NCBI RefSeq assembly: GCF_045037415.1
Contig: NZ_CP173438.1
Direction: 5' to 3' (one strand)
Source of the DNA: Escherichia coli
Lineage (GTDB): Bacteria; Pseudomonadota; Gammaproteobacteria; Enterobacterales; Enterobacteriaceae
Length of the DNA stretch: 64,000 nt
This document shows, in pieces, positions 14,698 through 29,781 of this stretch (within the stretch, counting starts at the first letter, position 1; each line of letters begins with the position of its first letter). The position numbers were made by a program, and so were the translations under genes. The notes under the pieces are model-generated. The model did not search any database. It was not told the DNA's origin and saw only the letters and a list, made by a program, of their open reading frames with translations.

Positions 14698-14773
14698 TGG
14701 CTCCTCTGACTGGACTCGAACCAGTGACATACGGATTAACAGTCCGCCGTTCTACCGACTGAACTACAGAGGA
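14698..14773 (-). tRNA. asnT: tRNA-Asn (GTT anticodon)
   Basis: 76-nt exact reverse complement of the E. coli tRNA-Asn sequence as recalled, ending CCA; assignment to the asnT copy is inferred from adjacent mtfA. Confidence 0.9.
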
Positions 14774-20705: not shown

Positions 20706-20873
20706 GATGGCAGCCTCCGCGATGAATTTGATTAACTCACCACCGAGGTTTTCCACGACCATAAGGGTGGTGAGACGTACAGGGGTGGAAATACCGGTCA
20801 TCACGGAACCCGGCCAGCCTTGCGGCTGCCCTGCACGCCCCACCATAATGCGAATGTGGCTGTGCTTAACGCA

Positions 20874-20898
20874 TAAAAAAACCGCCTGAGCGCGGTTA
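20874..20898 (-). terminator. Rho-independent terminator (minus strand) upstream of rha
   Basis: On minus strand AACCGC-GCTCAG-GCGGTT followed by TTTTTTTAT. Confidence 0.45.
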
Positions 20899-21540
20899 TG
20901 CGCCGTGAATGATTTCGGGTTTCCACGCCCGGCACCCGTTTTATGAGGTGCAGGTGCACTATAATTCCACCCGTTCTGGTTTTCAATAGCTACATTCAAC
21001 ATTTTCTCTACCTTTCATCACCGAAGTGAACTTTGTTGATGCGGTGCCTGGTGCCTCCAGGTGACGTTAACCAGTTAACAATTAACGCCGGATACAGAGA
21101 ATCCACCCATAACACTGTTTTTGGTTTTAACTGTTCCGCGTGCGCTTAGCCGCATTCACCGCATCACAAAATTCACTTTAAAAAGGGCGGCAGAGCAGTC
21201 ACGGAGTAGAACTGATACCGCCAAAAGTCACCAGAAAATTGATAACAGAGGGCGTTGCAGCGGGGTTGTCACTTAAGCGTATGGTCAACCTGACAACCCG
21301 GTGTCCTCAACGGGGGAAGGAATAACCCCGCCATACTTACCGCCGCGCCATTTCGCGGATTGCCACAACCGGAAGCGCACGGTCGACGAAAATTTAACGA
21401 CTACCTACAGAGAGACGAACTTCGCCGTGCGCTTTCGCGTTATGCCCTGACTTTTCAGGGATATATCCTTTTCAGTAAACTGTCAGTGCCGGATTCTTAT
21501 CCGTGTCCGGCGCACGCACTCTACCTCACCTGTGAATAAA

Positions 21541-22286: not shown

Positions 22287-22694
22287 TTATTTATTTGCGC
22301 TTCTTTTGCGAGCTTTGAGTAGTTCTTCAAAAAGTTTGTTGAAATTCTCAACTCGAGCACGCATCTCTGACAACAGAGCCTTTTGCTCTGACTCAGGCAG
22401 TGCGTCGAACAGTTGAAGCAACTCTTTTTGATCTTCTGTCAGATTAACTGGCTGATTATCTGGGATCGGTTCGCCTGGTTGCTTATCTTCATCTCCAAAA
22501 AGAAGCCAAGTCGGCGAGCACTGAAGCGCCTGGCTCAGTGCGAATAATCTCTTCCCCGCTGGCTGTGTTTCATCTCTTTCCCATTGAGAAATTGTTACGT
22601 GAGCCACTTTGACCAGCTTACCTAATGCGGCCTGAGACAGTTTTAATTTTTTACGCCTGTATAAGAGGCGAGCACCGAAGGTTTCGTTTTTCAT
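22287..22694 (-). CDS. Phage repressor, XRE/CI-type helix-turn-helix
   Basis: 135-aa ORF; N-terminal HTH SQAALGKLVKVAHVTISQWERDETQP; divergent from a Cro-like gene. Confidence 0.75.
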   Translation of the reverse strand: MKNETFGARLLYRRKKLKLSQAALGKLVKVAHVTISQWERDETQPAGKRLFALSQALQCSPTWLLFGDEDKQPGEPIPDNQPVNLTEDQKELLQLFDALPESEQKALLSEMRARVENFNKLFEELLKARKRSANK

Positions 22695-22695
22695 A

Positions 22696-22709
22696 TTAGG
22701 TAATTCTAA
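22696..22709. promoter_or_regulatory. Putative operator TTAGGTAATTCTAA abutting repressor start codon
   Basis: TTAG-N6-CTAA palindrome; a TTGACT -35-like hexamer follows at 22716-22721. Confidence 0.4.
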
Positions 22710-22746
22710 TTTTTCTTGACTTAGGTTTCTCTACGATCTAGTTTCC

Positions 22747-22760
22747 TTAGGAAAATCTAA
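22747..22760. promoter_or_regulatory. Putative operator TTAGGAAAATCTAA just upstream of cro RBS
   Basis: Third TTAG-N6-CTAA palindrome, immediately 5' of GGAG and ATG 22771. Confidence 0.4.
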
Positions 22761-22770
22761 GGAGTTCGAT

Positions 22771-22998
22771 ATGTTGAAAATTGATGCTATAGCGTTTTTT
22801 GGCAGCAAAACAAAGCTTGCCAATGCCGCAGGAGTTAGGCTGGCAAGCGTTGCTGCATGGGGGAAACTGGTTCCTGAAGGTCGCGCGATGCGTCTACAGG
22901 AGGCATCCGGCGGGGAACTTCAGTACGACCCCAAAGTTTATGACGAATATCGTAAGGCAAAGCGGGCGGGGCGGTTGAACAATGAAAATCACCCCTGA
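22771..22998 (+). CDS. Cro-like / YdaS-like small DNA-binding protein
   Basis: 75-aa ORF divergent from repressor with GGAG RBS; first gene of rightward early operon. Confidence 0.6.
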   Translation: MLKIDAIAFFGSKTKLANAAGVRLASVAAWGKLVPEGRAMRLQEASGGELQYDPKVYDEYRKAKRAGRLNNENHP

Positions 22999-23533
22999 AC
23001 AGGTTTGTGAGGCTCTGGATGCCTGGGTATGTCGACCAGGAATGACACAGGAGCAAGCGACGATATTAATCACGGAAGCATTCTGGGCTCTGAAAGAACG
23101 CCCGAACATCGATGTTCAACGCGTCACGTTTAATGATGGCGAGGTTGATCAACGGGCGCTGGGCGTTAACCGGGTGAAGATATTCGAACGCTGGAAAGCT
23201 ATCGACACCAGGGATAAGCGGAAAAAATTCACGGCGCTGATTCCGGCAATTATGGAGGCTATCCGAATTAGTGATTTCAGGTTGTATCGTGAGATCAGTG
23301 ATGGAAAAAGCATTACGTACATGATCGCCGGATTAAACAAAGAATATGGCGATGTGGTGGAGTCCGGGTTGCTTTTTGCGGATCCAGCTGTTGTGGAACG
23401 TGAGACTGACGAGCTTATAGAAAAAGCTATTGCTTTCAAGCATGCGTATCGTCAGCAATATCAATATTACTTTGCAGATAAACAAATGTCTGCCAGGGGT
23501 TTGTATGAGTATCGATGCACTACGATGGGCTAA
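22982..23533 (+). CDS. YdaT-like / CII-position regulatory protein
   Basis: 183-aa ORF overlapping cro-like stop; position equivalent to lambda cII or Rac ydaT; family assignment by recall only. Confidence 0.45.
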   Translation: MKITPEQVCEALDAWVCRPGMTQEQATILITEAFWALKERPNIDVQRVTFNDGEVDQRALGVNRVKIFERWKAIDTRDKRKKFTALIPAIMEAIRISDFRLYREISDGKSITYMIAGLNKEYGDVVESGLLFADPAVVERETDELIEKAIAFKHAYRQQYQYYFADKQMSARGLYEYRCTTMG

Positions 23534-24545
23534 AAAGGTGAAAACCGGCAGTTCATCCAGTAAGTCTGTATTGACCTGGCTTGCTGATATGTGCGGTGCC
23601 GATTTGTGTGCATACCCGTCTGTATCTGCACTGGCAGAAGTAACGGAACTAAACAAAAAGACTGTGCAGGACAGCTTACGACACCTGATGGAGATTGGGT
23701 TAATTGTTGATACCGGTGAGAGAAAAGGCAGAACAAAGCAAATTGTGGTGTACCGACTTATCGGTGTAGAAGAAAGTGTTGCCGAGCCTGAATACACCCA
23801 AAAACGGGAGTCTTTAAAGGTGGGTAAAATTGGTGCTGTTAATAAAAACAGTACCGAAAATGGTTATGTTTCAGCACAAAACAGACCCAAAAATGGAACT
23901 CTTAGCTGCATGGAAAATAACCAAAGACACCCAAATTTTCCATCAAAGACACCCAAAAACGGATCACGGAACCCAAAGGAACCCAAAGATCTAAACCCCA
24001 CACATAACGCACGCGAGAGTGCTCCGACCAGTGAGCAGGAAGTTTTGTCGTTACAGGCAGCACCCCTTGTATTCCTGGATGGCCTGAGCGAACCCATCGG
24101 AAAATTTCCGATGACCGATAGCTGGTATCCGTCACGGGATTTTCGACGACGGGCTGCGTTGTGGGGGATGGCTTTGCCGGAGACAGAATTTACACCTGCT
24201 GAACTTGCCGCCTTCCGGGACTACTGGGCAGCGGAGGGGAAAGTGTTTACGCAGATTCAGTGGGAGCAGAAATTCGCCCGTCACGTAAATCACGTCAGGG
24301 CGCAGGTTAAACCAGTCAGCAAGGGGGTAAACCATGCAGCAGCACCAGGTGGCACCGCATCACGGGCAGTTCAGGAAATTCGGGCAGCACGTGAGCAGTG
24401 GGAACGTGAAAACGGATTTATCAGCGACGGAAACAGTCTGGAAGCTGTGGGAACTCATGGGGGAGGTTTATTCGAACCGCTGGACCCAGAAGAACGGGGC
24501 CGCACCTTCGAAGCTCTGGATTGCACAGATTGGCGCGATGACTGA
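23505..24545 (+). CDS. Phage replication initiation protein (N-terminal winged-helix DNA-binding domain)
   Basis: Start chosen at MSIDALRWAKK; N-terminal domain typical of phage replication O-like/primosomal proteins; position after cro/cII-like genes. Confidence 0.55.
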   Translation: MSIDALRWAKKVKTGSSSSKSVLTWLADMCGADLCAYPSVSALAEVTELNKKTVQDSLRHLMEIGLIVDTGERKGRTKQIVVYRLIGVEESVAEPEYTQKRESLKVGKIGAVNKNSTENGYVSAQNRPKNGTLSCMENNQRHPNFPSKTPKNGSRNPKEPKDLNPTHNARESAPTSEQEVLSLQAAPLVFLDGLSEPIGKFPMTDSWYPSRDFRRRAALWGMALPETEFTPAELAAFRDYWAAEGKVFTQIQWEQKFARHVNHVRAQVKPVSKGVNHAAAPGGTASRAVQEIRAAREQWERENGFISDGNSLEAVGTHGGGLFEPLDPEERGRTFEALDCTDWRDD

Positions 24546-24999
24546 GCAGCAAATCCGACAGGTCTGCCGCCAGTGCATGGACCGCTGCCGGGCGGGTGAA
24601 ACATGGCCTCCGGACCTGGCTGAGTTTGTGGCGCTGATTTCAGAAAGCGGGGCCAATCCATTTGGCCTGACGGTGGATGCTGTGATGGAGGAGTACCGCC
24701 GCTGGCGTGATGAGTCCTGGCGATATGACGGAAGCGACAAATATCCGTGGCCTCAGCCTGTGCTGTACCACATCTGCCTCGAAATGCGTACCAGAGGGAT
24801 TGAGCGCCAGATGACGCAGGGTGAGTTAAAACGACTTGCGGAACGGCAACTGACGAAATGGGCAAAGCATGTTGGTAACGGGATGAGTGTTCCGCCAGTG
24901 CGACGACAACTGGAAGGGGCGAAACACCCGCAAGGGCCAACGCCAATTGAACGGCTGAAACAGGAATACGAACGCCGGAAGGCAGCTGGTTTTATTTGA
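24538..24999 (+). CDS. Hypothetical protein, possibly replication-associated
   Basis: ATG 24538 overlaps upstream stop (ATGACTGA coupling); Cys-rich segment CRQCMDRCRAGE; the longer track ORF from 24334 overlaps the previous gene out of frame. Confidence 0.4.
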   Translation: MTEQQIRQVCRQCMDRCRAGETWPPDLAEFVALISESGANPFGLTVDAVMEEYRRWRDESWRYDGSDKYPWPQPVLYHICLEMRTRGIERQMTQGELKRLAERQLTKWAKHVGNGMSVPPVRRQLEGAKHPQGPTPIERLKQEYERRKAAGFI

Positions 25000-25032
25000 A
25001 TCTGAGAAACGATTTTGTCGGAGGAAATTTTA

Positions 25033-25803
25033 ATGGAAACCGTATTTGACGCACTGAAAGCAATGGGAAAAGCCACATCGGTAGAACTGGCCGCGCGACT
25101 TGATATCAGTCGTGAAGAGGTTCTCAACGAGCTGTGGGAACTCAAAAGAAATGGCGTCGTTGATAAAACTGGTCACACCTGGTTTCTGGCTGGCGAAGGT
25201 GAATCCCGGGTAACCGAAGAGCGGCCAGTAAAATCTGAAGCACAGGATATGCTGACCGGGGAGGTCGAACAAAAAGTTACCGCAGACATGATGATTGAGT
25301 TTATCGGTCAGGATGGTGCTAAAACGTGTGAGGAACTGGCGGGTAAGTTCGGCGTCAGTACTCGCAAGGTTGCCTCCACGCTGGCGGTGGTAACCGCAAC
25401 GGGGCGGCTGGCACGCGTTAATCAGAACGGTAAATTTCGTTACTGCATGCCGGGCGATAATTTACCAGCAGAGCCGAAAGCCGCGCTGGTAACGGAAAGT
25501 GATGGTAAGGCCTTTCCTCAGCCAGCAGGTGCTGCGTTACCAGTCCGGGAAGCCGCAACACAGGAAGAAATTAAAACAGAAACTGTGGCGGACATTGTGC
25601 AGCCGTTGCCATCGTTTACCGAAACGCAAGCAGATGAGCTGATTTTTCCGTCCCTTCGCAGGGCAAACCTGGCGCTGCGCAGGGCGAAAAGTGATGTTCA
25701 GAAGTGGGAGCGAGTCTGCGCCGCGCTGCGGGAGCTGAACAAGCACCAGGATATTGTTCGACAGATTGTCGATTCATCCGGTCGTATTGTGTCGGAAAAG
25801 TGA
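25033..25803 (+). CDS. Hypothetical phage protein with N-terminal winged-helix-like segment
   Basis: ATG 25033 with GGAGGA 8 nt upstream; track start 25015 is an alternative TTG. Confidence 0.45.
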
Positions 25804-25818
25804 TTGCCGGAGACGCTT

Positions 25819-26211
25819 ATGGCAAAAGTATTTACACCAGAAGAGCGGGAAGAAGTGAAGGCGCGCATTGTGGAATTCGTGCGCCTGAGCGGACGAGAAA
25901 CTTTTCGACAACTGGCAGATAAAACGGGTGTCAGTAAGACCGCTATTCGTCGTTTATCTGGTGCGCTTGCGGCCAGTGGTGATGTCTGGCTCTCTGGTTG
26001 CGGGGTATTTCCATCAGAGCAGGCGTATCGCGTATGGCGTAAGACACCGGAGAAGGCTGCTGACCCGACACTGATTCGAAAGTTACCTGACGGAGAAATA
26101 CGTCGTTACAACAGACGGCAGAACATAATTTGTCGTGAGTGCCGCCAGAGCGAAGTTATGCAGCGTGTGCTGGCGTTCTATCGGGGAAACTTTCAGGAGG
26201 TGATGGAGTGA
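25819..26211 (+). CDS. Hypothetical phage protein
   Basis: ORF starting MAKVFTPEE with GGAGA RBS. Confidence 0.4.
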   Translation: MAKVFTPEEREEVKARIVEFVRLSGRETFRQLADKTGVSKTAIRRLSGALAASGDVWLSGCGVFPSEQAYRVWRKTPEKAADPTLIRKLPDGEIRRYNRRQNIICRECRQSEVMQRVLAFYRGNFQEVME

Positions 26212-26504
26212 GGGTCAGAGTTTATATTGCCGGTCCAATGACGGGATATGAAAATTTCAACCGTGAGGCGTTTCACAAGGCGGAAGAGGAACTGAAACGG
26301 GAAGGGCATACCGTCTTAAACCCGGCAGTACTTCCGGACGGGCTGACACAGCCGCACTACATGGATATTTGCATGGCAATGATTCGTTGTGTGGATGCGA
26401 TTTACATGCTGAATGGCTGGCAGCGGTCAGCGGGCGCTAAGGCAGAGCTGGCACTGGCGGAGAAACTGGGGCATGCAGTGATTTATCAGGAGGTGGCTCA
26501 ATGA
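26208..26504 (+). CDS. DUF4406-like protein (nucleoside 2-deoxyribosyltransferase-like fold)
   Basis: GTG start with AGGAGG 7 nt upstream; motif VYIAGPMTG typical of this family by recall. Confidence 0.45.
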   Translation: MRVRVYIAGPMTGYENFNREAFHKAEEELKREGHTVLNPAVLPDGLTQPHYMDICMAMIRCVDAIYMLNGWQRSAGAKAELALAEKLGHAVIYQEVAQ

Positions 26505-26962
26505 GAGAGGTTAACTATGAGGCGCTTCGTGAGGCAGCACAAAACTATCAGTCGACGCTGGCGTGGTATCAGGCTATCCCGGACAGCCCAAATGCTGAAC
26601 GGGATTGTGATGCGGCTCTTGCTGCGTTTAAGCGTCACATCCGTCATCGGGAAGCGGATATTATCGCTGATTTGCTGGATGGACTGGAAGAAGCAAAATC
26701 ACAACTCAAAGAGCAGCGTGAGTATTACGAAGGCGTTATCTCTGATGGGAGCAAGCGTATTGCTGAACTGGAAGCGCGGGAAGTTCAATTACCGACTCGC
26801 TACGACCTTCGATATGGACACCCGATAAATGCAGATGAGCGACATGTCATGATACCTAAAGAAAATGGCAGTTGGCTTTACCTGATTGACCTAGAACACG
26901 CATTACGCGTCTCTGGCATTCGCATCAAAGGAGAGGAGCATGGAAATAAAACCAGAGGATGA
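26501..26962 (+). CDS. Hypothetical phage protein
   Basis: 153-aa ORF, translationally coupled. Confidence 0.4.
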   Translation: MREVNYEALREAAQNYQSTLAWYQAIPDSPNAERDCDAALAAFKRHIRHREADIIADLLDGLEEAKSQLKEQREYYEGVISDGSKRIAELEAREVQLPTRYDLRYGHPINADERHVMIPKENGSWLYLIDLEHALRVSGIRIKGEEHGNKTRG

Positions 26963-27296
26963 GTTAAGCAATATCGTTTTATTTCCGGTAAAAGAGGATG
27001 ACCCTCGTAATCAGGTTAATTTTCTTTATGAGCCATCGGAAAGACCATATTGTCATCACGCCTCTGTCCGGGTTGACGAAAAAGAGCGTCAGGTCCGCTG
27101 TAAAATCTGCGGTGCAGTTGTGGAGCCATTTGACTGGATGCTCTCTGTGGCGAAAAGAGAAACCAGACTGGCAGATGATGTAAGGCACTTGCGCCAGGAG
27201 GAGCGGGAAAGGCGAAAAAATATAGAAAAGCTAATTCAGATTGAGCGTAACGCGAAAGCGCGGATACGCAGGGCGACAAAATCCAGAACTGAATAA
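26940..27296 (+). CDS. Hypothetical phage protein with CxxC pair
   Basis: 118-aa ORF; CHH...CKICG possible zinc ribbon. Confidence 0.4.
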   Translation: MEIKPEDELSNIVLFPVKEDDPRNQVNFLYEPSERPYCHHASVRVDEKERQVRCKICGAVVEPFDWMLSVAKRETRLADDVRHLRQEERERRKNIEKLIQIERNAKARIRRATKSRTE

Positions 27297-27389
27297 TTAA
27301 ATTTAGCTCTGTTAAAAATTTAATCCTTAACCGGAGGGATTTCTGCACCCTCAGAACATCAGGAGGCCGCCCGAAAGGGCGGTAGTTAA

Positions 27390-27572
27390 ATGCGAAAGTT
27401 TAAAATAATTATTGAAACGGGAATAGCCGGTGGAGATTTCGAGAATGAATTCGAAGTGGATGATGATGCGACGCCTGATGAAATACATGACGAAGCAAAA
27501 GATATTTTCTTTAACTACTGCAATTACTCATATCACGAAATAAAAGACGAAGAGGAAGAGCAAAATGGCTGA
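27390..27572 (+). CDS. Small acidic hypothetical protein
   Basis: 60-aa ORF preceded by AGGAGG and a GC hairpin. Confidence 0.3.
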   Translation: MRKFKIIIETGIAGGDFENEFEVDDDATPDEIHDEAKDIFFNYCNYSYHEIKDEEEEQNG

Positions 27573-27741
27573 TTTTGGTTCAACTAAATACAACGTCAGT
27601 TTTGAAGCATGGCATGAACTGTTAATGGACTATGCAGAGTTACGTGGTGGCAGTGCTGCTGATGCTGAAGCATGGCGTGATGATTATGAAGCAGGAAAAA
27701 CTCCGGTCGAAGCATATTGTGATGAGTGGGGCGATGAATGA
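27565..27741 (+). CDS. Small hypothetical protein (58 aa, below track cutoff)
   Basis: ATG 27565 to TGA 27739-27741, coupled to neighbours on both sides. Confidence 0.3.
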   Translation: MADFGSTKYNVSFEAWHELLMDYAELRGGSAADAEAWRDDYEAGKTPVEAYCDEWGDE

Positions 27742-28253
27742 GCGAGATTAATTATCAGGAAGGGCATGAAACGGCAGGGCAGGCAAAACCAGTTGCATGG
27801 CGATATCGCTACGTGAAAAAAGACGTTACAGACTTTCAGGGGAAGCCGTGGGCTGGTGACTGGAAATATGTACCGACAAAAGAGGATTGTAACGACAGGC
27901 CGAACTATGAAATTCAGGCCTTATTCATCGGCCCGCCAGTCCCGGTGACATCAGAAGGACTGGTTAAAGCCGTGCGCTTTTATGAACAGGTAAAGCGTGA
28001 GAATCCGCCAGTCGAAACAGGAGCATGGAAGGATGCTGTTGACTGGGTGCTCAGAGAGGCCTGCTGCGCTGCCATTCTGGGTAAAGCCGACAATCCACCA
28101 GCATCCGGCAATCAGGTTAGCGAATTAACAATGTGGGTTAAACGACTGGTCAGTCAACTGAAAAAAGCTCAGCCGGACTGCAAATTACCGGAGAAGGCGA
28201 TGGATTACCTGAAACGAAATGGACTGATAAGCGTGGAGGATGTTTTACGATGA
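27738..28253 (+). CDS. Hypothetical phage protein
   Basis: 171-aa ORF. Confidence 0.4.
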   Translation: MSEINYQEGHETAGQAKPVAWRYRYVKKDVTDFQGKPWAGDWKYVPTKEDCNDRPNYEIQALFIGPPVPVTSEGLVKAVRFYEQVKRENPPVETGAWKDAVDWVLREACCAAILGKADNPPASGNQVSELTMWVKRLVSQLKKAQPDCKLPEKAMDYLKRNGLISVEDVLR

Positions 28254-28373
28254 ATATTTAGACTAAAGAGTTTGTAACGCTATGTAAGTGATTTTTTCTG
28301 GTTTAGATATTTATATGTCCGGCCAAATTGAGGTGTGTTTAAATGTTATTGCACATTGATTGTAGGGGGAATA

Positions 28374-28553
28374 ATGAAAAACGCATTGCAGTTTTTGTTT
28401 GTTGCGTTCTGGTTGTTCGCATCATGTATGCCCATCATCTTCACAGCAAGGTATATGGAAAAAATTGATGTTTTGATATTAATGTTTGGACATATAAATG
28501 CCCTTTTTTTAGGGGTGTTCATGGCGGTCATGTGCATTGAATACTGGCGGTAA
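28374..28553 (+). CDS. Small hydrophobic membrane protein (AT-rich moron)
   Basis: About 59 aa with two hydrophobic segments; low GC. Confidence 0.3.
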   Translation: MKNALQFLFVAFWLFASCMPIIFTARYMEKIDVLILMFGHINALFLGVFMAVMCIEYWR

Positions 28554-28755
28554 ATACAGCGAACGCCATTGGTTTAGTTGGATATTTACTGTGCCGGACA
28601 AAAACGGTTTGCGGGGAAATCTTAGTTAAGTAGAATAACTGCGGGTGCTTGAGGCTATCTGTCTCAGGCATGAACACCAAAAGGCAGATAGAGAAAAGCC
28701 CCAGTTAACATTACGCGTCCTGCAAGACGCTTAACATTAATCTGAGGCCATATCT

Positions 28756-28815
28756 ATGCGACACATAGAGATTAGCCTCTTACGGACCGAAAGGTCAAGG
28801 AGAAGCAGGCTATGA
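28756..28815 (+). other. Short leader ORF (19 codons) ending in TGA overlapping the hok-like start; mok-like coupling frame
   Basis: ATG 28756, stop TGA 28813-28815 overlapping ATG 28812. Confidence 0.3.
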
Positions 28816-28967
28816 AGCAGCAAAAGGCGATGTTAATCGCCCTGATCGTCATCTGTTTAACCGTCATAGTGACGGCACTGGTAACGAGGAAAGACCTCTG
28901 CGAGGTACGAATCCGAACCGGCCAGACGGAGGTCGCTGTCTTCACAGCTTACGAACCTGAGGAGTAA
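28812..28967 (+). CDS. hok: Hok/Gef-family type I toxin (51 aa)
   Basis: MKQQKAMLIALIVICLTVIVTALVTRKDLCEVRIRTGQTEVAVFTAYEPEE: single TM helix plus conserved C-terminal Hok motif; GGAGAAG RBS region. Confidence 0.85.
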   Translation: MKQQKAMLIALIVICLTVIVTALVTRKDLCEVRIRTGQTEVAVFTAYEPEE

Positions 28968-29035
28968 AGAACCCGGCGAGGGATAAATCCCTCGCCACCT
29001 CTGATGTGGCAGGCATCCTCAACGCACCCGCACTT

Positions 29036-29060
29036 AACCCGCTTCGGCGGGTTTTTGTTT
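29036..29060 (+). terminator. Rho-independent terminator after hok-like gene (UUCG tetraloop)
   Basis: CCCGC-TTCG-GCGGG followed by TTTTTGTTTTTATTTT. Confidence 0.6.
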
Positions 29061-29183
29061 TTATTTTCAACGCGTTTGAAGTTCTGGACGGTGCCGGAAT
29101 AGAATCAAAAATACTTAAGTAGCGCGCAGGGATAAGAGGGATGGTCCCTTAAAGGGGAGAGCTAATTATCCGGAAGGATTCTG

Positions 29184-29435
29184 ATGATGAACATCGAAGA
29201 ACTGCGTAAAATTTTTTGTGAAGATGGCCTCTATGCTGTGTGCGTTGAAAATGGAAATATTGTTAGTCATTACCGCATTGTGTGTTTGCAAAAAAATGGG
29301 GCTGCGTTAATTAATTTTGTGGATGCCCGAGTGACGGACGGATTTATCTTGCGCGACGGTGAGTTTGTCACTTCATTACAGGTATTGAAAGAGATCGGAA
29401 TAAAAGCTGGGTTTTCTGCTTTTTCAGAAGAATAA
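29184..29435 (+). CDS. Hypothetical protein
   Basis: 83-aa ORF. Confidence 0.4.
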   Translation: MMNIEELRKIFCEDGLYAVCVENGNIVSHYRIVCLQKNGAALINFVDARVTDGFILRDGEFVTSLQVLKEIGIKAGFSAFSEE

Positions 29436-29501
29436 ACTCATCTACAATCTTGCGCGGGGCTGAACTCCCGCTGAGTAACACCGTGCCACCGGAGAAAACC
29501 G

Positions 29502-29780
29502 ATGGCACGCAACGCAAAATATTACAAACATGATAATTCGACCGTTCTTGCCCACACGCACGAGCGGTATTCTCACGCATTTAAGTCAGACTGGTACCAG
29601 CATCCCCCATGCACTGAAGAACAGGCCGAATGGCTCATTCAGTGTTACCGCAGGCGCGGATGCGAGGTTAAAAAAGCCCTTAGCCTCGACTACCGTCACT
29701 GGATAATCTCCGTCAGGCTTCCTTACTCCGAACGCCCACCGCGTCTGTCCCGCACATTCCAGCAACGCATCTGGAGGTAA
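29502..29780 (+). CDS. Hypothetical protein
   Basis: 92-aa ORF. Confidence 0.4.
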   Translation: MARNAKYYKHDNSTVLAHTHERYSHAFKSDWYQHPPCTEEQAEWLIQCYRRRGCEVKKALSLDYRHWIISVRLPYSERPPRLSRTFQQRIWR

Positions 29781-29781
29781 C

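Follow-up and report, generated by a model that had tools for sequence, protein, structure and literature searches.

Does the hok-like gene carried by a prophage of Escherichia coli (contig NZ_CP173438.1 of assembly GCF_045037415.1) still belong to a complete toxin-antitoxin cassette, or is it a relic like the chromosomal copies of K-12, and what would such a cassette do for the prophage? The gene was examined within a 64,000-nucleotide stretch of that contig, analysed as a whole and called the window below. With high confidence, positions 28627–29062 can be regarded as a self-contained and intact type I toxin-antitoxin cassette of the hok/sok family, belonging to the hokD/hokW-sokW lineage and operating in the mode described for plasmid R1 and prophage Sp5. 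Every canonical hok/sok element was located, or in the case of sok predicted, within approximately 28627–29062. The cassette looks functional, yet it is ordinary and previously described: its toxin gene is known as hokD by NCBI annotation, and its lineage as the hokW-sokW of lambdoid phages. The value of the analysis lies mainly in annotation, since RefSeq marks the hokD coding sequence only and coordinates of the full cassette can now be supplied. The sole mildly new observation is a three-frame polymorphism of the mok leader reading frame across otherwise near-identical cassettes.

The HokD Toxin and Its Distribution

The toxin is encoded by 51 codons at 28812–28967 on the plus strand, and the earlier assignment of this reading frame to the Hok family is borne out. 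The deduced 51-aa membrane toxin matches the Pfam model HOK_GEF (PF01848) over its entire length (model positions 1–42 of 42, E = 1.3e-23) and PHROG 251, “MokW-like host killing” (E = 2.8e-33), and it is identical to HokD/RelF of E. coli K-12. An NCBIfam Hok subfamily model is also matched (E = 5.7e-13), under its curated cutoff. Hok coding sequences studied so far are toxic, according to a recent survey (bioRxiv 2025.08.07.668861). A tblastn search of the 64-kb window found no further hok copy.

Two UACG motifs occur in hokD, at 28950–28953 and 28906–28909. The former lies in codon 47 (UAC, Tyr), which A-to-I editing would recode to Cys, and according to a 2026 preprint hokD mRNA is edited by TadA at this Cys position. 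The latter lies in codon 32 (GUA), and editing would leave its amino acid unchanged; Sp5 hokW has GUG hard-coded at this codon. Local hairpins at the two motifs are weak in the folds.

A 561-bp segment of this locus recurs in 4937 of the 5426 complete E. coli genomes, where it is annotated hokD, with a median of two copies and a maximum of nine. Seventy-nine deposited phage genomes contain the segment too, with hok, mok, MokW, or gef as the gene name, and so do some plasmids. An enrichment of hok in prophages has been reported (bioRxiv 2025.08.07.668861). Together with the score of the leader against its Rfam model (RF01794, 106.7 bits, E = 3e-23; see below), this distribution excludes a chance origin of the locus. 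As a separate observation, two IMG/VR loci (L051 and L093) have a premature stop within hok (...IRTG*TEV...), indicating that decayed copies of the cassette circulate beside intact ones.

Genomic Setting and Limits of the Cassette

Positions 22560–35120 of the window are 99.98% identical to a 12.5-kb stretch of a prophage in strain THO-003. In that prophage, Cro, YdaT, replication proteins, small unknown ORFs, hokD, rem, DUF968, DUF1133, holin, and lysozyme follow each other in this order on one strand. From these neighbors, the cassette can be assigned to the early-right part (replication-to-Q) of a lambdoid prophage, with the replication genes on one side and the late-gene regulator on the other.

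The limits of the cassette are sharp. Homology blocks common to more than 100 viral (phage) contigs start at 28596–28631 and end at 29056–29062. Among 94 unique related loci, column entropy climbs steeply beyond 28627–29056, and the sequence upstream of 28627 is unrelated. These block ends and entropy limits argue for a discrete, exchangeable, moron-like cassette with its own promoter and terminator. No terminator separating it from the preceding genes was found upstream. Direct repeats flanking the locus (28588/29088 and 28623/29112) were considered as insertion scars and rejected as chance-level matches, because their score was reached in 70 of 500 shuffles.

Several features of the surroundings deserve mention in their own right. 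Directly 5′ of the cassette lies a 72-aa, strongly hydrophobic ORF with a GTG start (28335–28553, plus strand), which could encode a small membrane protein or be spurious; it is unannotated in the 99.98%-identical RefSeq prophage, and neither PHROG nor PADLOC matched it. About 7.5 kb upstream of hokD, just beyond the stretch aligned to the THO-003 prophage, a cluster of prophage small-RNA matches occupies 20763–21236 on the minus strand, namely C4 antisense RNA (20763–20850, 81.9 bits), isrK (20875–20951, 67.7 bits), and DicF (21185–21236, 71.5 bits). Farther upstream, a tRNA gene at 14701–14773 on the minus strand (72.6 bits) has the anticodon loop CUGUUAA, which suggests the anticodon GUU (Asn); this gene could be a prophage attachment site or a phage-borne tRNA.

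The Predicted mok-hok mRNA

A putative hok promoter can be read from the sequence, with a -10 box TAGAAT at 28631–28636 and a weak -35 box at about 28608–28613 on the plus strand; conservation among the 94 loci starts at 28627, just before the -10 box. Transcription would begin at about G28643 (±2), and a 5′ end near 28643 coincides with the start of the Rfam leader model and, by alignment, with that of the R1-type mRNA. The module bounds first proposed, 28680–29060, therefore enclosed the right content but began too late, as the -10 box and the probable mRNA 5′ end both precede them. The hok promoter scores under the threshold of a consensus scan, as does the sok promoter described below, so that both placements rest on homology. 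The sole promoter-like site above this threshold (TTGAAG, 18-nt spacer, TAGAAT; 29076–29105, plus strand) is located just past the hok terminator and about 80 nt 5′ of rem (29184–29435), and it may be the rem promoter.

The leader, 28643–28814, scores 106.7 bits with Rfam family RF01794, named “sok,” whose gathering score is 59. The match, on the sense strand, takes in the whole model (positions 1–157) and stops at the hok AUG. The same sense-strand match is obtained in the R1-type plasmid locus, in phage Rac, where mok and hok are both annotated, and in mEp460. Given this strand and this end point, RF01794 represents the mRNA leader with the Sok target and not the antisense RNA; an annotation that takes over the Rfam name labels the wrong strand as the antitoxin.

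The full-length mok-hok mRNA probably spans 28643–29060 (about 418 nt, plus strand), as judged from its predicted fold and from the homology-block ends at 29056–29062. The fold has a predicted free energy of -167.8 kcal/mol (z = -7.8 relative to shuffles), and it contains the complementary elements known from R1, whose definitions were taken from a published description (PMC9841398). At the 5′ end lies tac (GGGUGCUUGAGG, 28643–28654), identified from fold pair lists, the Rfam consensus, and inverted repeats I2 and I4. Near the 3′ end lies fbi (CCUCAACGCACCC, 29017–29029), identified from folds and inverted repeat I4. The two pair over 12 bp with one bulge in the in silico fold. The anti-Shine-Dalgarno box ucb (AGCCCC, 28696–28702), placed by folds and Rfam, is predicted to pair with the mok Shine-Dalgarno sequence (GAGG, 28744–28747) in the full-length mRNA, using positions 28698–28702, and with tac in the open form. 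In the open form the mok Shine-Dalgarno sequence would instead pair with dcb (28775–28779). The hok Shine-Dalgarno sequence (AGGAGA, 28798–28803) is predicted to pair with 28775–28781 in the full-length fold. Both Shine-Dalgarno sequences are thus sequestered in the predicted full-length fold.

tac is predicted to have three mutually exclusive partners: fbi in the closed form, ucb in the open form, and 28661–28671 in a metastable nascent hairpin. Indeed, folds of short nascent transcripts contain a 5′ hairpin at 28643–28671, and that of a 78-nt transcript contains the tac-ucb pairing. In the Rfam consensus structure, model positions 1–7 are paired with the AGCCCC segment, the mok Shine-Dalgarno sequence faces CCUC (dcb), and the mok AUG sits atop a hairpin. 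Mutually exclusive pairings of the same kind have been described for R1 hok mRNA (PMC9841398). When 3′-truncated mRNAs were folded by minimum free energy, the switch from closed to open form did not emerge by itself; support for the open form comes only from the consensus structure in Rfam and from the folded 78-nt nascent transcript.

Downstream of the hokD stop codon, a stem-loop at 28973–28997 (GGCGAGGGAT/ATCCCTCGCC; inverted repeat I9, also present in the fold) contains a perfect 10-bp stem-loop at 28975–28996. Its counterpart in R1 is the hairpin that caps the processed, active mRNA at its 3′ end and protects it (PMC9841398), a role that it would presumably share. The mRNA would end at an intrinsic terminator (29036–29062), in which the UUCG-loop hairpin AACCCGCTTCGGCGGGTT at 29036–29053 is followed by a U-tract. 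The UUCG-tetraloop terminator recognized at the outset is accordingly present, T-run included.

The Predicted Sok Antisense RNA and Its Promoter

A Sok-like antisense RNA had been expected on the minus strand at about 28690–28790. Judged by homology to sokW, this position appears essentially right and can be refined to a predicted RNA of about 70 nt running from 28762 to 28692 (ends ±3 nt), with its promoter at 28798–28769. The RNA would start near G28762 and end in the UUUUCUCU tract near 28692. Its predicted parts are a 5′ tail complementary to the mok start codon and loop, a long hairpin, and the UUUUCUCU tail. The antisense strand folds with -31.7 kcal/mol (z = -6.1), and its 3′ two-thirds form a long terminator-like hairpin with a U-tail.

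The predicted sok promoter consists of a -35 box TTGACC (28798 to 28793), an 18-nt spacer, and a -10 box TAATCT (28774 to 28769) on the minus strand. The -10 box agrees with the consensus at three of six positions; its position is homologous to the sokW -10 box and aligns with that of the R1-type locus.

The homologous Sp5 locus has been examined experimentally: HokW is toxic, it is neutralized by sokW expressed from its own promoter, the two RNAs share 71 nt of complementarity, and sokW was detected by northern analysis (PMC8621323). The published Sp5 primers and probes (seven of seven locus-specific) match seven fetched loci, one of which aligns to the window at about 93%. The sokW probe YO-592, which has the sense sequence, corresponds to 28733–28762 of the window. 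In the promoter-less sokW mutant (primers YO-421/422), the altered AGGTTA is the -10 box TAACCT on the minus strand, equivalent to 28769–28774 of the window.

The most variable patch of the cassette, 28747–28766, covers the mok Shine-Dalgarno sequence, start codon, and loop, and hence the Sok 5′ tail. The idea that a variable Sok tail keeps co-resident loci from cross-talk found no support: in 16 genomes with at least two loci, the same variant occurs in 8 of 20 within-genome pairs, against 9.5% of pairs between genomes, although some of the former pairs may be assembly duplicates that raise their share. The variability can be accounted for just as well if the loop and the Mok peptide are under relaxed constraint.

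The mok Leader Reading Frame

Upstream of hok, a 19-codon mok ORF (28756–28815, plus strand) encodes MRHIEISLLRTERSRRSRL; its UGA stop and the hok AUG overlap in the sequence AUGA. Its ATG at 28756 aligns with that of the annotated mok of phage Rac and of R1-type mok, and its start codon is placed atop a hairpin with the loop CGACA. Both this ORF and its overlap with the hok start had been noticed before, and both are confirmed. The arrangement is not the canonical one, in which the mok of R1 and Rac has 68–70 codons. As read from the alignments, this is a shortened, frame-shifted mok allele: the loop just after ATGC is 2 nt shorter than in relatives, which shifts the frame so that translation stops at the AUGA overlap.

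The frame was surveyed in 117 loci with the exact hok Shine-Dalgarno and start sequence, comprising the window, three annotated loci, and contigs from IMG/VR. In 86 of them, including the validated Sp5 locus, the mok ATG precedes the hok ATG by 57 nt and is in frame with it, forming a 70-aa ORF. In 12 loci the distance is 58 nt and gives an overlapping, R1-like 68-aa mok. The window type, with the ATG 56 nt upstream, 19 codons, and UGA over the hok AUG, accounts for 15 loci, and the remaining 4 have other arrangements. The hairpin that pairs the mok Shine-Dalgarno sequence with dcb and contains the mok AUG is kept in all common variants, with -10 to -13.5 kcal/mol. The target loop CGACA of the window (5 nt) is the shortest among the variants, and by eye it lacks the YUNR (pyrimidine-U-any-purine) U-turn motif, which is present in several relatives and is not universal among them. 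When leaders of loci L005–L124 were compared with 28643–28814, variants of the 5′ hairpin and of the mok loop were found in mixed combinations; this mosaic structure implies recombination within the leader of about 170 nt.

Such a shortened mok raises the suspicion that the locus, like the chromosomal copies of K-12, is a decaying hok relic without function. The loss of 2 nt behind the mok ATGC would then have cut mok down to 19 codons and made the Sok target loop smaller, with the result that Hok is no longer expressed or regulated. The spacing of 56 nt, where relatives have 57 or 58 nt, fits this explanation, as does the fate of K-12 hokD, which lost its entire leader to relBE. Decayed relatives do exist, in the form of the two loci with a stop codon inside hok, and the chromosomal hokA, hokB, and hokC, when tested, did not mediate post-segregational killing (bioRxiv 2025.08.07.668861). 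However, the mok stop is located past the hok Shine-Dalgarno sequence, at the hok AUG, and in R1 a stop at such a position does not impair hok translation (PMC9841398). Moreover, tac, ucb, dcb, fbi, both Shine-Dalgarno sequences, the terminator, and the toxin ORF are all intact, the stability of the hairpin equals that of the other variants, and the exact allele is carried at 100% identity by about 15% of complete E. coli genomes. Taken together, these points make a relic very unlikely.

The frequency of the allele can be given more closely. The exact 79-nt leader recurs with at least 99% identity in 776 records, and about 812 of the 5426 complete genomes, roughly 15%, carry it with a coverage of at least 80%. 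The window allele is thus successful and is neither a rare lesion nor a rare decay product. A short-mok allele is widespread in E. coli, ST131-type genomes included.

Under the preferred reading of an intact cassette, the window mok crosses the hok Shine-Dalgarno sequence before stopping at the AUGA. Because it terminates only after this crossing, coupling to hok should persist, plausibly by termination-reinitiation. The majority allele at 57 nt could give an N-terminally extended Hok of 70 aa. A broader proposal is possible, if rather doubtful: all three mok frames may be active, with coupling depending solely on ribosome transit across the hok Shine-Dalgarno sequence, so that the window allele would use termination-reinitiation and the majority allele would yield an extended Hok isoform, and sense early phage transcription into the sok promoter would be the trigger that removes Sok on induction. 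The frame polymorphism can in any case be regarded as a natural experiment on what translational coupling needs in hok/sok systems, an incremental refinement of what is known.

Proposed Mode of Action and Biological Role

By analogy with R1 hok/sok and Sp5 hokW-sokW, the weak hok promoter would produce a stable mRNA of about 418 nt. In this mRNA, tac-fbi pairing and the sequestered mok and hok ribosome-binding sites would allow neither translation nor Sok binding. Slow trimming of the 3′ end would remove fbi, and the leader would then refold into tac-ucb pairing and a hairpin of the mok Shine-Dalgarno sequence with dcb that presents the mok AUG. As long as the cassette is transcribed, the short-lived Sok would pair with the mok start region, block mok translation, and mark the duplex for RNase III. 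Once the supply of Sok stops, ribosomes would translate the 19-codon mok through the hok Shine-Dalgarno sequence and terminate at the AUGA, and this termination would open the hok start or permit re-initiation there. HokD would insert into the inner membrane, and the cell would be depolarized or lysed.

The biological role is most likely that of an extra membrane-damaging function released on prophage induction, by analogy with Sp5. After RecA-dependent induction of Sp5, sokW disappears and HokW appears, about 1 h before the endolysin, and deletion of the locus halves phage release (PMC8621323). This sole experimental evidence on a prophage homologue points to assisted lysis or phage release on induction, not to stabilization or exclusion.

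An intact cassette might instead stabilize the prophage, a possibility raised in the earlier note, through post-segregational killing of cells that lose it, without aiding lysis. This role is somewhat unlikely, considering that the tested prophage homologue gave an induction-linked phenotype, with RecA-dependent Hok after sokW loss and a halved yield in the deletion (PMC8621323), and that the chromosomal hok loci tested did not mediate post-segregational killing (bioRxiv 2025.08.07.668861). Abortive-infection defense has been considered as well: an infecting phage would shut off host transcription, Sok would decay, and Hok would kill the cell before progeny are made. R1 hok/sok on a high-copy plasmid lowered the plating efficiency and plaque size of T4, as cited in PMC8621323, prophages often carry defense genes as morons, and “moron” is the PHROG category of hokD. 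The T4 effect in that citation is modest, however, and was obtained from a high-copy plasmid, PADLOC gave no defense-system match, and hok is not enriched near defense systems (bioRxiv 2025.08.07.668861), which together leave a defensive role distinctly improbable.

As for the release of HokD on induction, a trigger may be suggested from the position of the cassette, which is co-directional with the early-right operon and has no terminator in front. Read-through from the induced early-right operon might collide with the convergent sok promoter and add excess sense RNA, so that Sok would be lost. Such a collision would explain the loss of Sok that the authors of the Sp5 study left open (PMC8621323).

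Comparison With Known hok/sok Systems

The closest characterized relative is hokW-sokW of Sp5 (Sakai prophage 5, Stx2 phage Sp5/933W, E. coli O157:H7; Takada et al., 2021, PMC8621323), with about 93% DNA identity across the cassette. The two loci are alike in the 51-aa toxin, the leader architecture, and their placement within a lambdoid prophage, and the sok promoter and RNA predicted for the window occupy the same position as those of Sp5. They differ at the toxin C-terminus (TAYEPEE in the window, VDYESEK in Sp5 HokW), in the position of the mok ATG (56 nt upstream with a 19-codon uORF versus 57 nt and in frame with hokW), in the target loop (CGACA versus CUGAACA), and in the sok promoter (predicted TTGACC/18/TAATCT versus TTGCCT/17/TAACCT). 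Furthermore, the Sp5 locus diverges past fbi and is without the UUCG terminator present in the window.

In the Qin cryptic prophage of K-12, hokD (relF) is identical to the window gene in both toxin protein and coding DNA. The two 3′ UTRs agree as far as fbi, and rem is the downstream neighbor in each case. Upstream of the ATG, only about 20 nt are kept in K-12 and relBE stands in the leader's place, so that K-12 hokD is without the hok promoter, tac, ucb, mok, and sok, all of which are present or, as for sok, predicted in the window. The window locus can thus be seen as the intact counterpart of the decapitated hokD of K-12.

The plasmid-borne R1 hok/sok (parB), with its proven role in post-segregational killing, has the same elements in the same order, and the Rfam leader match is found in both. 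The sok promoter predicted in the window, like that of R1, is located in the hairpin between mok and the hok Shine-Dalgarno sequence. R1 Hok and the window toxin are about 45% identical, and beyond the conserved boxes the nucleotide sequences have mostly diverged. The mok of R1, with 70 codons, begins 58 nt before hok and extends into it (PMC9841398), and the annotated 68-aa mok of phage Rac overlaps hok in the same manner, whereas the mok of the window is completed in 19 codons.
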